64,000 nucleotides of DNA from a virus (lineage: Duplodnaviria; Caudoviricetes), in the IMG/VR virus record IMGVR_UViG_3300029288_000010, positions 4,847-68,846 of that record; one strand, given 5' to 3'. The notes under the pieces were generated by a model. The model was not told the origin of the DNA and did no database searches. It worked only from the letters and a program-made list of their open reading frames with translations. Of the stretch, positions 8,649 through 64,000 are shown piece after piece. Within the stretch, counting starts at the first letter, position 1; the number at the start of each line of letters is the position of its first letter. The position numbers and the translations under genes were made by a program.

Positions 8649-9677
8649 ATGAGAAAATTAGCAAGTATTCAAAGGATAGAGCAAGTAATTCCAATAGAAG
8701 GAGCAGATAATATAGAATCAGTAAGGGTTCTTGGCTGGGTCTGTGTTGTGAAGAAGGGCGAATTTGAGCCTGGCAATCTATGTATTTACATTGAAATAGA
8801 TTCAGTGCTGCCCAACATCCCACAATTTGAGTTCTTTAAAAAATATGCAAAGGACAGGCGAGTAAAAACCATTAAATTGCGTAAGATAATTTCTCAAGGA
8901 CTATGTTTACCAGTAGGAGAATATTTGCCTTCAGAATATAATGGCATTCAAGTAGGAGATGATGTTACTAGTATTTTTGGCATTGAAAAATATGAGCCAC
9001 CTGCTGAAATCAGGGGAGCTGGATATGATAAAATGATGGCATTCCCAATAGTAATACCAAAGCCAGATGAAACAAGGATACAAACAATACCCCACATATT
9101 AGAACAATTCAAAGGAACCCCATGTTATATAACAGAGAAAATAGATGGGACTTCAGTTACATTTTTTAAATATGAAGGTGAAATAGGAGTGTGCTCAAAG
9201 AATGTAAGGTATCAACTTGATGCTTCCAATGTATATACTGCCATGTTTAAAAAACATGATTTAGAAGAAAAACTAAAATCAAGCTATGACAATATTGCAA
9301 TACAGGGAGAAATAGTTGGTCAAAAAATACAGAGCAATAAATACAAATTCCCAGATCAAAAGCTATTTATATACTCAATATATGACATTAAAAGCCAAAG
9401 ATACTATTCTTGGGATTTAATGAATAGGGTATGCACTGAGCTTGGATTAAAATGTGTTCCCTATTTATTGGGCATAGATTTATCTGGAGGAGTTGATGAT
9501 TTTGTGGGATACTCAAAAGGCAAATCTGTATTAAATCCAGAAGTGCACAGAGAAGGCATTGTAATAAGAGCAAGAGGTGCAATAGATTTAGATCTCAAGA
9601 CTATGAGCGAGCTTGGGTATAATAGGTTCTCGTTTAAAGTTATAAATCCTGATTTTCTTATAAAATACGGAGAATGA
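8649..9677 (+). CDS. ATP-dependent RNA ligase, DRB0094/Rnl5-like, with N-terminal OB domain
   Basis: MRKLASIQRI...GADNIE...GW.CVVKKGEF N-terminus; motif I TEKIDGTS; QGEIVG; REGIV; FKVINP.FL. Confidence 0.88.
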   Translation: MRKLASIQRIEQVIPIEGADNIESVRVLGWVCVVKKGEFEPGNLCIYIEIDSVLPNIPQFEFFKKYAKDRRVKTIKLRKIISQGLCLPVGEYLPSEYNGIQVGDDVTSIFGIEKYEPPAEIRGAGYDKMMAFPIVIPKPDETRIQTIPHILEQFKGTPCYITEKIDGTSVTFFKYEGEIGVCSKNVRYQLDASNVYTAMFKKHDLEEKLKSSYDNIAIQGEIVGQKIQSNKYKFPDQKLFIYSIYDIKSQRYYSWDLMNRVCTELGLKCVPYLLGIDLSGGVDDFVGYSKGKSVLNPEVHREGIVIRARGAIDLDLKTMSELGYNRFSFKVINPDFLIKYGE

Positions 9678-58430: not shown

Positions 58431-58655
58431 ATGGAAGAATCAGAAGTAGGATATGAAATTCTAGACAAAAGTGACTTACTATACCAATATGGCTATACAT
58501 ATAATGAAATAGAGAACATCTTATTTAATAGGATGTTCCCAATTCCAGAAAAGCATAATAATGATGCATGGAATAAATCAGGTAAGGTTTCTAGTGATGC
58601 GCATAAGGTTCCACAATACAGGTCAAATGTGTTTCATGAAATAGGATTGTATTAA
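58431..58655 (+). CDS. Hypothetical protein, last gene of the + strand run
   Basis: GGAGG SD; its stop overlaps the convergent MTase stop (TTAA). Confidence 0.55.
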   Translation: MEESEVGYEILDKSDLLYQYGYTYNEIENILFNRMFPIPEKHNNDAWNKSGKVSSDAHKVPQYRSNVFHEIGLY

Positions 58656-59424
58656 CTAAAACTTATCCTTCCTTGCCTGTTATAATCCTCAATCCTTTTC
58701 ATACCTTTCTCATAGTAAGTGTGATCCTTTTCTATGACTATGTAGCGTCTATTTGTCGATAGACAAGCAATGACAGTTGTGAGGCTCCCCCGAAGGGGTC
58801 CAGAACCAGATCACCTTCGTTGGTATAAGTTTGAATCAGGTATTGGAATAATGCTATGGGCTTTTGAGTGGGGTGCAATCCGAATTCTTCGTCATTATTG
58901 TTGTTAAAATATTGAATACTACTTGGATATTTAAGTTCTGTATAAAAATTGGCTTCTCTTGTTAATGTTTTTAAATTTCCTAAATGATTAATTTCCGTAT
59001 TGCCATTTCTGATATAATTGTCTCTTTGAATTGAAGATAAAGACTTCTTTTGCATTATTGGAAAATAATTTATTGATTCCCCGAAAACCAATACATTCTC
59101 ATGTAATTTCATAGGTTGATATTTGATAGAAGCAAAATTGCTACCATGATTCTTTTCCCATATCCACTCATACTTAAACCACTTTCGATTCGAGCATATC
59201 AAATCCGTAGTGAACGGCTGTGAAGCTGTGAATACATAAGCACAATTCGGCTTGCCAATACGCTTTAGTTCTGTCCAAAGCTTATCGAGATCTGGAACTA
59301 TATCCCATGCACAAGCGGTTATTCCATAAGGCATATCTGTCAACACCAGTTCCACGCTCTTATCCTTGATCTGGGGGAAAATGTCAAGACAATCTGCATT
59401 TATTATGCTATTCGGCTCTATCAT
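58652..59424 (-). pseudogene. Beta-class N4/N6 DNA methyltransferase with a 1-nt frameshift in a G5 tract
   Basis: DCL..F, LTDMPYG, HPTQKP, VLDPFGG then loss of frame. Adding one G restores GSLTTVIACLSTNRRYIVIEKD and a stop at 58652. Confidence 0.85.
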
Positions 59425-60389: not shown

Positions 60390-60447
60390 GTACAACCAAA
60401 AATAAATTTTACCCTACTACCCTATTATAGCTACAGTAGGAATCCTA

Positions 60448-60467
60448 TACACTTAATAATAAGTGTA
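60448..60467. promoter_or_regulatory. Operator-like palindrome
   Basis: TACACTTA-ataa-TAAGTGTA perfect 8-bp inverted repeat. Confidence 0.45.
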
Positions 60468-60776
60468 GCACTTGTCAACCAACAGGCATTACTACTGCTA
60501 CAATATGTTTCCAGGGGTATGGGTGTAGGATGCAGTATATATCTTCTCTTATTATGGGTGCCAGAAATCCCTAGATCTGAAAAGTGCAAGCATTGGCACC
60601 TTGCTACAGGCAGAAGATGCTCCAAGAAGGCAAAATATGAGCCAAAAATGAAGGTATGGAAAAAAAATTAGTCCCAGGTATGAGGGAGATCAAGCTTATC
60701 CCTGGAAATGTTTCCAGAGCTTGCCCCACCTGTCGCCCTGATTCTATTGGCTTCCTACCAAGCACTCCTGCACACA

Positions 60777-60838
60777 CTTGATAATACTGGACTTGACAAA
60801 GCATACATTATAGATGCTTGATAATACTGGACTTGACA
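60777..60838. repeat. 22-bp exact direct repeat, two copies, 40-bp period
   Basis: CTTGATAATACTGGACTTGACA at 60777-98 and 60817-38. Confidence 0.9.
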
Positions 60839-61184
60839 GGTGCCCATGCCTTCCAGAGTCAATAGATTCAAGCATCTACAATGTATTATGATAATACTAA
60901 CATATAATCATGGGTAAATAAGTATAATTAAAGTAATAGTATATAATTGGAAATATAGAATGCTTTACTTCAAAACTCTCCGAATTTTGAAGTGATATTC
61001 TATATTATCTTAATATTCTATGGAATATAATATAGTAGGTGAATATAATAATAAGTGTATAATACTGCATGTGAATATCATATATTATAAGTGTATAAAC
61101 ATGGTATACTATAGGATAATAGCAATAAATGTATTATAATTGAATAGAATATAACTTATGGAATAGGATGACAATATTTGTCAG

Positions 61185-61273
61185 TGTCCTGAAACAGGAC
61201 AATATACCCTTGATTACCAGCACTTTACAGTATATGTCCTGAAATTGAACAGGGACTGTCCTGAAATTGAACA
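61185..61273. repeat. 17-bp direct repeats (22-bp period) plus a related palindrome
   Basis: TGTCCTGAAATTGAACA at 61235-51 and 61257-73; TGTCCTG-aaa-CAGGACA at 61185-61201. Confidence 0.88.
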
Positions 61274-61407
61274 TATATTTATAGAATGCATTAAAACATA
61301 ACCTGAATATAACATTATATTTCATCATGTTTTCTATTTGTATATTATATATTTGTTTATATTGAATTCGTTATTACTTGGCACGCTTTATGCATATATA
61401 TTTATAT

Positions 61408-61662
61408 ATGAATTTCAATATATTAAATAAATCAAATAAAACAATGGAGAAAAAAACAATGGATAAAAAAACAACTGTCGCAGTCGTCATTAAAAGGAAT
61501 ATTCCAATTTGCAAAAAGACTTTACGTTACATTTTAAACTTTAATCATAAGGGAGAGTATTATCTTTTATGTAAAGACTGTAAACTTATATTCCAAAAAG
61601 GATGCTACTTAGGAATGAAAAGGGAGAAAAAACAATGGAACGAATCGAAGATTATGGTATAA
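61408..61662 (+). CDS. Hypothetical basic protein
   Basis: ORF 61378..61662; possible leaderless ATG at 61408 after TATATT. Confidence 0.45.
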   Translation: MNFNILNKSNKTMEKKTMDKKTTVAVVIKRNIPICKKTLRYILNFNHKGEYYLLCKDCKLIFQKGCYLGMKREKKQWNESKIMV

Positions 61663-61733
61663 CAGTTATTGTAGGACTGTCTATGTCATTCTTTATCATA
61701 GGAATATTAAATTTAATAATAGAGTCAAAATAG
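61635..61733 (+). CDS. 32-aa single-TM peptide (not in track)
   Basis: GGGAG SD; MERIEDYGITVIVGLSMSFFIIGILNLIIESK. Confidence 0.5.
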   Translation: MERIEDYGITVIVGLSMSFFIIGILNLIIESK

Positions 61734-61745
61734 GAGAATAGAAAA

Positions 61746-62132
61746 ATGGCGAAATTGACAAAAAAACAATTTGAACAGATCAACCGGAAAATATGTAACG
61801 AAATATATATGCGTTCCAATATAGGAAGTTTCAACCGTGGATTTAATCTTGACAATATATCAGAAGTAATTGAAAAAGTATTATCAGTGCTAAGCCAATA
61901 TAACTTAAGGCTAGCAGATAATACATACTGCTATAAATTGACACAAATGAATCTGTCGAAAGTATTATCATCCAATGGGAATAGATTCGCATTGGATGAT
62001 GTGGACTGCGTAGACTTGTGTAATAATCAGGGCGAAGTCATTTCGAATTACGACTTTGGCTTGTGGATGCAAAATTTTAATGGCAAAATTGCTATAAACT
62101 GCGGCTTGTGGCCGTATAGGAGTGTAAAATGA
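61746..62132 (+). CDS. Hypothetical protein
   Basis: AGGAG SD, 128 aa. Confidence 0.65.
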   Translation: MAKLTKKQFEQINRKICNEIYMRSNIGSFNRGFNLDNISEVIEKVLSVLSQYNLRLADNTYCYKLTQMNLSKVLSSNGNRFALDDVDCVDLCNNQGEVISNYDFGLWMQNFNGKIAINCGLWPYRSVK

Positions 62133-63601
62133 ATTTATTGCTATCGAATAAGAAGTCATATTGTGCAGGATGTATCACGTCAAACCTATATAATCCACTA
62201 TTTCCTATTCAATATAAGAATAGGGAATATTTAATGTGCGAAGAATGCATAGACTTGTGTCAGTCGAACGCATACAATATATGTAACGACTGCGGCAGTT
62301 TATTCACGGAATACCACGATCAGGATGAATTTTGCGAAGAATGCTTTAATGACCATTATGGAGAATGCACTTATTGCTCGAATATAGTGGACTTAGATGA
62401 CTGCTGCAATTACGATAATGGGACGCTTTGTGAACATTGTTTTGAGAACTATTATTTCCGATGCTACGATTGTGAAGATATACGTCTGAATCAATACGGA
62501 AATGATGTCAATGGCGAAATAATTTGCGATGACTGCATTACGAATTATTCGTGTTGCGAACGCTGTAATAGTTATCATAGCTCATCTGATATTATGTATT
62601 GCGAACATTGCGAAAATTATCTTTGTGAGGATTGCTATACGGATCACGGATGTAACAATTATGTTCACGATTACTGTCATAAACCGAATCCGATATTTCG
62701 ACACTATGACATTAAAACAAAAAGTATAGTTACCGGTAATTATAATCCCAAAGTATTATATATGGGATTTGAGTTGGAAGTTTGTTTTGATAGTTCGAGT
62801 AAAATGAATTCTGCATCTGAATCTATATTTGAATTATCAAACAGTGAAAGTTTATTCTATTTAAAGGACGACTCATCACTGTCGCCTTATGGCTTTGAAA
62901 TAGTTTCACATCCTATGGATTTAAAATGTTTAATTACTGGATTTCCTTGGAGAAATATTATTTCAATTTTGAGAAGAAATGGCGGAACGAGTTATGATAG
63001 TAAACTTTGCGGATTTCACATTCACACTTCAAATAAATATTTCGGCAAAACTGACTATGATATCAATAACATGAAAATCAAGATTGTAAATTTTGTCGAA
63101 AAGAATTGGACCGAAATGGCGAAGATTGCGAAAAGATGCAAATTACTGGAATGTATTGAAAACGGGCAAGCGAAGACTGCGGACGGTTATTGTCATTTTC
63201 AAACCAACACGAGATGCGGCTTCCGTTATTGTCAAGCAAAAAATATAAATATAAGTAAAGTGATTAAAAACCTCAATTACAATAAAGTTTTATCGTATTA
63301 TCCAAGGGTGACTGATTTAAAAAATACCCATCGAAACGTATCTTATGAATACGGCAGAATACGGAATGCAGCAATCAATTTGCAACCGCATGATACCACT
63401 GAATTCAGATTATATCGAGGAACATTAAAACTCCAAAGTATAGTTAAATATTTAACTCTGACAAATGCTATTATTGATTATGTCAAGCAATACGACTCTA
63501 TAGTCAAAACTTCGACATTCGAGGAGTTTATTCAAAAAAGCAGCTATACCAAAAACTTTAAAAAATATTTAAAACTTTTACAAATAGGAGAAGGCGAATA
63601 A
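62129..63601 (+). CDS. Second amidoligase with N-terminal CxxC zinc-finger array
   Basis: LYMGFELEV, KDDSSL, GFEIVSHP, CGFHIH, RNAAINL, TTEFRLYRGTL. Confidence 0.87.
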   Translation: MNLLLSNKKSYCAGCITSNLYNPLFPIQYKNREYLMCEECIDLCQSNAYNICNDCGSLFTEYHDQDEFCEECFNDHYGECTYCSNIVDLDDCCNYDNGTLCEHCFENYYFRCYDCEDIRLNQYGNDVNGEIICDDCITNYSCCERCNSYHSSSDIMYCEHCENYLCEDCYTDHGCNNYVHDYCHKPNPIFRHYDIKTKSIVTGNYNPKVLYMGFELEVCFDSSSKMNSASESIFELSNSESLFYLKDDSSLSPYGFEIVSHPMDLKCLITGFPWRNIISILRRNGGTSYDSKLCGFHIHTSNKYFGKTDYDINNMKIKIVNFVEKNWTEMAKIAKRCKLLECIENGQAKTADGYCHFQTNTRCGFRYCQAKNINISKVIKNLNYNKVLSYYPRVTDLKNTHRNVSYEYGRIRNAAINLQPHDTTEFRLYRGTLKLQSIVKYLTLTNAIIDYVKQYDSIVKTSTFEEFIQKSSYTKNFKKYLKLLQIGEGE

Positions 63602-64000
63602 TGTGTATTATAATATATAAAAATTCAAAAAATAAACCGCCAAGTGATAACGAATTATCACTTGCTGAATACTATAACCCGGATGGAATTGGAATTGCCT
63701 ATATTGATAATAATACCATTAAAATAATTAAAGGTTTAAAATTGGATAACTTGATAAACCTGAATGATAATTTATTATATGACAAAACTGTAATCTATCA
63801 TTTCAGATATTCCACTAGCGGGAGTACTAAGGCGGGACTGTGTCATCCTTTTCCATTGTCAAGTGATTTGTCAAAACTTTGCGAAATAGAATTATCATGT
63901 GATACCGTCGTCGCTCATAATGGACACTTCCTTGATTATGCCGGATCAAAACAATATTCAGATACGCAGATATTTATTAGTAAAGTTTTGTCAAAATTCA
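63601..64000 (+). CDS. Second class II glutamine amidotransferase (truncated by window end, not in track)
   Basis: TAATG overlap; MCIIIYKNSK..NPDGIGIAY..HFRYSTSG..CHPFPLS..AHNGH..YSDTQIF. Confidence 0.88.
   Translation, partial: MCIIIYKNSKNKPPSDNELSLAEYYNPDGIGIAYIDNNTIKIIKGLKLDNLINLNDNLLYDKTVIYHFRYSTSGSTKAGLCHPFPLSSDLSKLCEIELSCDTVVAHNGHFLDYAGSKQYSDTQIFISKVLSKF

Follow-up and report, generated by a model that had tools for sequence, protein, structure and literature searches.

Three tandem amidoligase–amidotransferase cassettes in a circular tailed-phage genome, one of them within an island of foreign composition

The DNA considered here is a stretch of 64,000 nucleotides (the window) from a virus of the Caudoviricetes, and corresponds to bases 4847–68846 of IMG/VR record IMGVR_UViG_3300029288_000010 (contig C3 in full, 68,846 bp; coordinates are those of the window unless contig C3 is named). 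The contig belongs to an assembly of 16 contigs and 956 kb. An earlier note, made from the letters of the window alone, had described a cassette of an amidoligase gene followed by a class-II glutamine amidotransferase (GATase) gene at 62129–64000, as a second and diverged copy of a cassette at the start of the window. The open reading frames (ORFs) of this cassette were confirmed, and its similarity to the one at the window start was significant for both proteins (E 9e-38 for the ligases, E 4e-45 for the GATases). Another cassette was located in the 4.8 kb of contig that precede the window, outside the view of that note. Three amidoligase-then-GATase pairs are thus carried on one strand within 9,456 bp of the circle into which the contig closes. 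The genes and the overlap on which this layout depends are as follows.

62129–63601, + strand: AL1, zinc-finger amidoligase of cassette 1, 490 aa; PF12224 score 27.4 bits; N-terminal ~210 aa with 11 CxxC pairs, C-terminal domain of glutamine synthetase (GS) fold.
63601–64000 (first 133 codons), continued at contig C3 128–477, + strand: GAT1, class-II (N-terminal nucleophile, Ntn; Cys-1) GATase-like protein, 249 aa; begins Met-Cys and keeps the family-invariant R, N-G and D.
Contig C3 2508–3737, same strand as the other pairs: AL2, ligase of cassette 2, 409 aa; PF12224 score 25.5 bits.
Contig C3 3750–4775, same strand as the other pairs: GAT2, GATase of cassette 2, 341 aa.
1–1763, + strand: AL3, ligase of cassette 3, 581 aa from the in-window ATG at 18; PF12224 score 25.6 bits.
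1765–2865, + strand: GAT3, class-II GATase-like protein, 366 aa; C-terminal tail with 6 CxxC pairs.
63874–64000, no strand: terminal overlap of 127 bp, an exact match to the first 127 bp of contig C3; the closure lies inside GAT1.

An exact identity of first and last 127 bp, as in contig C3, is what an assembler working at k=127 usually leaves when it opens a circular path, and the contig closes on itself to give a unique circle of 68,719 bp (~68.7 kb). The overlap lies inside GAT1, and the two ends join in frame to a GATase of full length; the joined 249-aa protein is collinear with other GATases over its whole length, including the C-terminal CxxC...CxxC ribbon. The order on the circle from this gene onward is GAT1, three ORFs of unknown function, AL2–GAT2 and AL3–GAT3, with 4.3 kb between the end of cassette 1 and cassette 3 and with cassette 2 in between. 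The expectation that the two copies would be close neighbours on a circular map was therefore correct. The array sits at the start of the rightward arm of the circle and, to judge by this position, may belong to the early region, as had been proposed. No Amidoligase_2 gene other than AL1, AL2 and AL3 was found in the whole 956-kb assembly. By its gene content the replicon is a tailed phage: a large terminase (TerL), a portal, tape-measure and tail proteins, a UvsX-like recombinase, an SbcC-like nuclease subunit and a helicase are encoded on the circle, together with an RNA ligase, a metallophosphatase, MT-A70 and N4/N6 DNA methyltransferases, and ThyX.

Cassettes 1 and 3 have the same gene order and are coupled in the same manner, by a 1-nt overlap (TAATG) at the AL1/GAT1 junction and a 1-nt spacer (TAA-T-ATG) at the AL3/GAT3 junction, with a Shine–Dalgarno-like motif before each start. 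The inserts said to be shared by the two copies are present, namely C.FRYC (CGFRYC in copy 1, CSFRYC in copy 3), KTVIYHFR, CHPFPLS and YSDTQ.F. An alternative start for AL3, an ATG 82 nt before the window, would give a protein of 614 aa, up to 33 codons longer. The public gene call for AL1 begins at an internal Met (335 aa) and omits the zinc-finger array (62129–62593); the long form is the better call, because the paralogs and the wider family share the Cys pattern of the array.

All three ligases score above the gathering cut-off of 22 bits for PF12224 (Amidoligase_2). The structural model of AL1 (predicted local distance difference test, pLDDT, 79) falls into two parts. In Foldseek searches its C-terminal domain matched GS (8fbp, E 3e-4), YbdK (1r8g, E 1e-3) and GmaS (7cqn, E 2e-3) with a probability of ~1.0 and modest TM-scores of 0.3–0.38, and the N-terminal ~200 residues matched tandem LIM zinc fingers. 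Eleven residues (E215, E217, K246, D248, E257, H261, H297, R336, N417, E425 and R427 in AL1 numbering) are invariant in 42 members of the ligase family, including the three from this phage; by analogy, E215, E217, E257, H261, H297, R336, E425 and R427 are assigned to a putative metal/ATP site.

Against Pfam GATase_4/GATase_6 (cut-off 23 bits for GATase_4), GAT2 scored 23.2 bits and the GAT1 fragment 17.1, below that cut-off, and GAT3 gave no match. All three begin Met-Cys, with M1 and C2 invariant in 37 family members, as are R68, N107, G108 and D120. The best matches to the N-terminal domain of the GAT3 model were the glutaminase domain of GlmS (1xff, E 4e-5) and PurF, with AsnB, the stand-alone protein 1te5 and EgtC lower. 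No synthase domain of the kind expected of a true amidotransferase is fused to the GATase domain, which is followed only by a zinc-ribbon tail, and the partner is provisionally classed as a GATase-like hydrolase rather than as a proven amidotransferase. From their conserved residues, all six proteins look catalytically intact. Cys pairs recur in both families: N-terminal CxxC arrays occur in 39 of 39 outside ligases examined (median 8 pairs) and C-terminal CxxC pairs in 22 of 35 outside GATases. The three cassettes of this phage have 11, 6 and 11 pairs in their ligases and 2, 4 and 6 in their GATases. Since the zinc-finger arrays are of different lengths and numbers, it is plausible that the cassettes have different targets, one of the possibilities raised in the earlier note.

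Comparison of the copies showed that they have diverged far. AL1 and AL3 are 31% identical over 394 columns, and the N-termini of GAT1 and GAT3 are 53% identical over 134 columns, close to the half that had been estimated by eye. Across all pairs of the three copies, identities range from 29 to 32% for the ligases and from 42 to 51% for the GATases. A terminal repeat was rejected as an explanation, in agreement with the note: at the nucleotide level the cassettes have nothing in common beyond a 101-nt stretch at 69%, and the only true terminal repeat is the 127-bp overlap. Three ligase trees were constructed, from 81 ligases of IMG/VR loci, from 78 sequences including the best word-search matches and from the 91 best matches of an exhaustive search that covered 1.84 billion representatives. 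AL1, AL2 and AL3 form one clade in all three (Shimodaira–Hasegawa-like approximate likelihood ratio test, SH-aLRT, 97, 98.8 and 91.5, respectively), in which AL2 and AL3 pair as sisters to the exclusion of AL1. GAT1, GAT2 and GAT3 likewise form one clade, with a support of 100. Because the branches are long, this evidence is good but not final, and an old duplication of whole cassettes within one phage lineage would be the simplest reading of the trees.

Cassette 1 lies in DNA that differs sharply in composition from the remainder of the phage. The parts of this island within the window that were not listed above are given here.

61369–64000, no strand: in-window part of the CpG-normal island, which continues past the closure to ~700 of contig C3 (~3.2 kb in total).
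61444–61662, + strand: small Cys-pair (zinc-ribbon-like) ORF, 72 aa from ATG, from the ORF list and reading of the sequence; first gene of the island.
61635–61733, + strand: small hydrophobic ORF, 32 aa from ATG, with an AGGGAG Shine–Dalgarno motif, from the ORF list and reading of the sequence.
61746–62132, + strand: ORF of 128 aa, function not assigned; its stop overlaps the ligase start (ATGA).

On the CpG map the island runs from a first CpG at contig C3 66215 (window 61369) to a last dense CpG at 680. Its observed/expected (o/e) CpG ratio is 1.39–1.41, compared with 0.21 +/- 0.07 and a maximum of 0.39 in 310 non-overlapping segments of 3.2 kb (z ~18). The dinucleotide signature is also unusual when CG is left out (z 3.3), with just 1 of the 310 segments equally far from the backbone. 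The very different CpG content seen by the earlier reader is evident from the gene counts, which are 61 in the 490 codons of AL1, 13 in the 581 of AL3 and 14 in the 409 of AL2; cassettes 2 and 3 are CpG-poor like the backbone. The excess falls at synonymous positions and codon boundaries, with 22 NCG codons and 31 C-to-G boundaries in AL1 compared with 0 and 10 in AL3. The island contains, in order, the Cys-pair ORF, the hydrophobic ORF, the 128-aa ORF, AL1, GAT1, a hydrophobic ORF of 19 codons following GAT1, and a strong terminator that closes it (contig C3 580–628; a 12-bp GC-rich stem and then a T-run). Its layout is that of a moron, an insert that is transcribed on its own and differs in composition from its surroundings. 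Because of the island composition and the trees together, cassette 1 was probably imported recently from a related phage free of CpG depletion, which upholds the suggestion of the note that one copy was newly acquired; a relative rather than a distant phage is the likelier donor because all three copies share one clade.

The 128-aa ORF before cassette 1 gave no significant Pfam match, no PHROG match and no usable atlas match, and bears no resemblance to the 116-aa ORF in front of cassette 2. The only direct repeat flanking the island is a match of 16 of 17 nt (contig C3 65994 and 702; E 0.03), which is too weak to carry an argument. In the 1-kb non-coding gap ahead of the island (60777–61273) there are three copies of TGTCCTGAAATTGAACA, of which the first is a palindromic variant, and two exact copies of a 22-nt unit ending TTGACA; these repeats look like operators or iterons. 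The preceding non-coding segment (60425–60790) is by eye richer in GC than its surroundings, with no Rfam match and a predicted plus-strand folding no better than that of shuffled sequences (z -0.34). Beyond the terminator, contig C3 carries 2.5 copies of a 17-nt unit (~713–757) and then six to seven copies of GATAATATT (779–835), which encode the 'DNIDNIDN' start of a 280-aa ORF; because these repeats make up that start, the true one is probably further downstream. CpG depletion of the backbone extends to all 16 NCGN contexts (0.15–0.41), and TG and CA are elevated. For the large contigs of the assembly the CpG o/e is ~0.70 (TCGA 0.11, ACGT 0.29); depletion in the phage far exceeds that in the putative host bin. 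Another CpG-rich patch, of smaller size (58650–59420), coincides with a minus-strand DNA methyltransferase-like ORF (58738–59424) and may be another recent insert.

The module itself is known and widespread. IMG/VR was found to hold 249 relatives of the ligase, and the exhaustive search returned 2,136 cluster representatives at E <= 1e-10. Gene neighbourhoods were counted at 79 IMG/VR loci, where a ligase directly followed by a GATase is the rule. The count of double cassettes in related genomes that the note had called for gave 3 of 79 loci (L007, L017 and L036), with the two copies sisters in the tree each time; none of these loci has three cassettes within 10 kb. No conserved third gene stands beside the pair in the 79 loci, the neighbours being ordinary early or replication genes. 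The pair heads the early arm in phages of unrelated backbone, among them a T7-like phage, a phage with a P22 portal and a temperate element. What is particular to the present phage is the closed circle with three intact, diverged pairs, one of them a compositionally fresh insert.

The pairing of Amidoligase_2 with a class-II GATase was predicted by Iyer, Abhiman, Burroughs and Aravind in 2009 (PMID 20023723), as that work is cited in PMC10580990. It has been annotated in LUZ24-like phages, tf, the OM43 phages MEP401/402 and others, as well as in Marvin (gp105/106), with its role stated as unknown. In cultured phages, the GATases nearest to these belong to MEP401/402 and the mycobacteriophage Marvin cluster (31 and 26.5% identical to GAT3, respectively), and the closest ligase is an unannotated gene of Clostridioides phage AR1086-1. 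The pairs of MEP401/402 and Marvin are of the same two families, in the same ligase-then-GATase order, tightly coupled and at an early-arm position in a phage. They are single pairs, however, whereas this phage has three diverged pairs in tandem, one in compositionally foreign DNA, with large LIM-like zinc-finger arrays on its ligases and zinc-ribbon tails on its GATases. An extended cassette with COOH-NH2_lig, Amidoligase_2, GATase, ATP-grasp and AIG2/GGCT has been described from phiEco32, LUZ24, PaP3, tf and UFV-P2 (PMC3890496, PMC3517423), and in the LUZ24 type the ligase and GATase are paired with a GGCT/AIG2 enzyme that cleaves gamma-glutamyl bonds (PMC3890496). Like the present array, that cassette places several amide-bond ligases beside a class-II GATase among early genes in a lytic phage; it brings together three unrelated ligase folds and GGCT, whereas the present phage repeats one ligase fold with its own GATase three times.

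Uncultured phage contigs of ~68–70 kb with an SU10-type portal (L086, L088 and L091, from Logan/ENA) resemble this phage in genome size, a TSCPD gene, a pair at the start of the rightward arm and more than one ligase, and their GATases are 35–40% identical to GAT3. Their layout differs (a 305-aa ligase, one GATase, an 840-aa ligase and then an SNF2 helicase), with two ligases per GATase rather than repeated pairs. The 840-aa ligase of this group carries an N-terminal extension of ~450 aa without assignment. In the cellular systems PuuA/PuuD, EgtA/EgtC and GmaS/N-methylglutamate (NMG) synthase, a ligase makes a gamma-glutamyl amide that a GATase-like Cys hydrolase later cleaves. YbdK, GmaS and EgtC are among the fold matches of AL1 and GAT3, but those systems belong to cellular pathways with small-molecule substrates and lack zinc-finger arrays, and the phage proteins have no sequence-level membership in them.

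Taken as a whole, we consider it fairly probable that cassette 1 belongs to a tandem array of three old paralogous cassettes, was itself re-imported and works by a ligase/hydrolase mechanism. The array would have arisen by old duplications within one phage lineage, and cassette 1 would have returned recently, as a self-contained moron-like transcription unit, from an unsampled relative not subject to CpG depletion. The GS-fold ligase would activate a carboxylate with ATP as an acyl-phosphate and join it to an amine, with the LIM-like array recruiting a macromolecular target, and in its partner, a Cys-1 Ntn hydrolase, the glutamine/gamma-glutamyl pocket would be intact. By analogy with the cellular systems named above we prefer, although tentatively and at somewhat less than an even chance, a reading in which a gamma-glutamyl-type amide is formed by the ligase on some target within the infected cell and is trimmed or reversed by the partner; gamma-glutamyl chemistry is favoured because the GGCT partner of the LUZ24-type cassettes points the same way. 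The three cassettes might serve different targets or successive ligation steps, and linked peptide ligases are noted by Burroughs et al. to catalyse successive ligations often (PMC4431377).

Several observations weigh against this interpretation. The top fold matches of the GATase are true glutaminases (GlmS and PurF) with EgtC lower, which fits an ammonia donor equally well, and GGCT/AIG2 (PF06094) gave no match in the whole assembly, whereas control genomes did match. COOH-NH2_lig (PF14395) was likewise without a match in the assembly, but the controls also had none, so that this result is uninformative. A literature search found no biochemical study or enzyme assay for any member of the pair, and our statements on the substrate, on which way the GATase reaction runs and on what the zinc fingers do are all inferred. 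The donor of cassette 1 was not found: the word-based search returned nothing above 30% identity, and the nearest outside ligase in the exhaustive search is 37–38% identical over matched stretches. Support for the ligase clade falls to its lowest value, 91.5, with the 91 best exhaustive matches, and all branches are long. The physical linkage of island and backbone is that given by the assembly, and a simple promoter scan upstream of the island showed no enrichment.

The principal alternative for the chemistry is glutamine-dependent amidation, in which the GATase would be a true glutaminase that passes ammonia to the ligase and the target carboxylate would become an amide, as in GatD/MurT or asparagine synthetase B. 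The glutaminase residues (Cys-1, Arg, Asn-Gly, Asp) form a complete set that does not vary, the glutaminase domains named above are the best fold matches, and strict one-to-one adjacency with translational coupling would suit a heteromeric complex. To our knowledge, however, no GS-fold ligase takes ammonia from a GATase partner, and the GGCT/AIG2 enzyme of the LUZ24-type cassette, which cleaves gamma-glutamyl amides, points to gamma-glutamyl chemistry instead; we regard amidation as somewhat unlikely, albeit a serious contender. Quite unlikely, in our view, is a role in DNA base hypermodification, with the pairs extending or amidating side chains on modified phage bases and the zinc fingers binding DNA. 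Lee et al. report that, in viral contigs, genes for thymidine hypermodification are accompanied by amidoligase and glutaminotransferase domains (PMC8989533), and this phage carries several DNA methyltransferases and ThyX. Yet ThyX implies ordinary dTMP synthesis, no 5-hydroxymethyldeoxyuridine (5-hmdU) kinase, aGPT-Pplase or dUMP hydroxymethylase was present among the genes scanned, the 79 loci lack a conserved third enzyme beside the pair, and the array matches LIM domains, which are protein binders in eukaryotes.

The history of the island admits two further explanations, to which we give little credence. It could come from a co-occurring phage and have been joined to the backbone by the assembler, as a chimera or a mixture of strains. 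The compositional switch is abrupt and lies in intergenic DNA at both sides, the contig is metagenome-assembled, and the ligase cluster is found on this 1 contig only, with no second assembly showing the same junctions. A false join at k=127 needs exact 127-mers common to both sides, though, and there are none between the cassettes; the genes of the island are intact and a terminator ends it, its closest paralogs are its neighbours, and the closure that crosses it is in frame within GAT1. Just as improbably, cassette 1 could be an old resident that has retained its CpG through local selection or because the depleting force spares it. Its place in the same clade as cassettes 2 and 3 and the missing donor would agree with this. 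Against it, the CpG excess lies at synonymous sites and codon boundaries and reaches the small ORFs upstream and the terminator downstream, other dinucleotides deviate too, and cassettes 2 and 3, with the same kind of function, are fully depleted.

Set against these alternatives, recent import of a ligase/hydrolase cassette can be extended to a speculative and on the whole unlikely picture of a modular toolkit for host takeover. Zinc-finger arrays would steer each pair to a different host protein, on which a reversible amide-linked (gamma-glutamyl-type) tag would be placed, and cassettes with their own promoter and terminator would be traded between related phages as targets change, cassette 1 being a fresh trade. 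Whichever chemistry applies, three intact diverged copies side by side amount to a natural experiment with a common chemistry and differing zinc-finger arrays, and comparison of their binding partners and substrates should reveal the target of a module that is among the commoner phage enzyme modules still without an assigned function. The sharp CpG contrast is a rare time stamp for the probable passage of a complete cassette, as an independent unit, from one phage to another, and draws attention to a very strong pressure against CpG that acts on the backbone.

A terminase search in IMG/VR found no close relatives of the phage backbone, and Rfam and tRNA scans of the window gave no match. An alternative genetic code was rejected for the phage and for the other contigs, as reading TGA or TAG as sense brought no gain and the standard code fits. 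Among the other contigs of the assembly, C1 (11.5 kb, GC 0.39, CpG o/e 1.27) consists to ~69% of one giant ORF, and C9 (43 kb) and C10 have a CpG o/e of ~1.07; these three differ from the main contigs and may be other mobile elements or mis-binned DNA. The RNA ligase of the phage (PHA02142 OB-fold and RNA_ligase domains; 8649–9677) lies in the replication/repair arm, where it adjoins the SbcCD-like genes, and may counter tRNA-cleaving defences.

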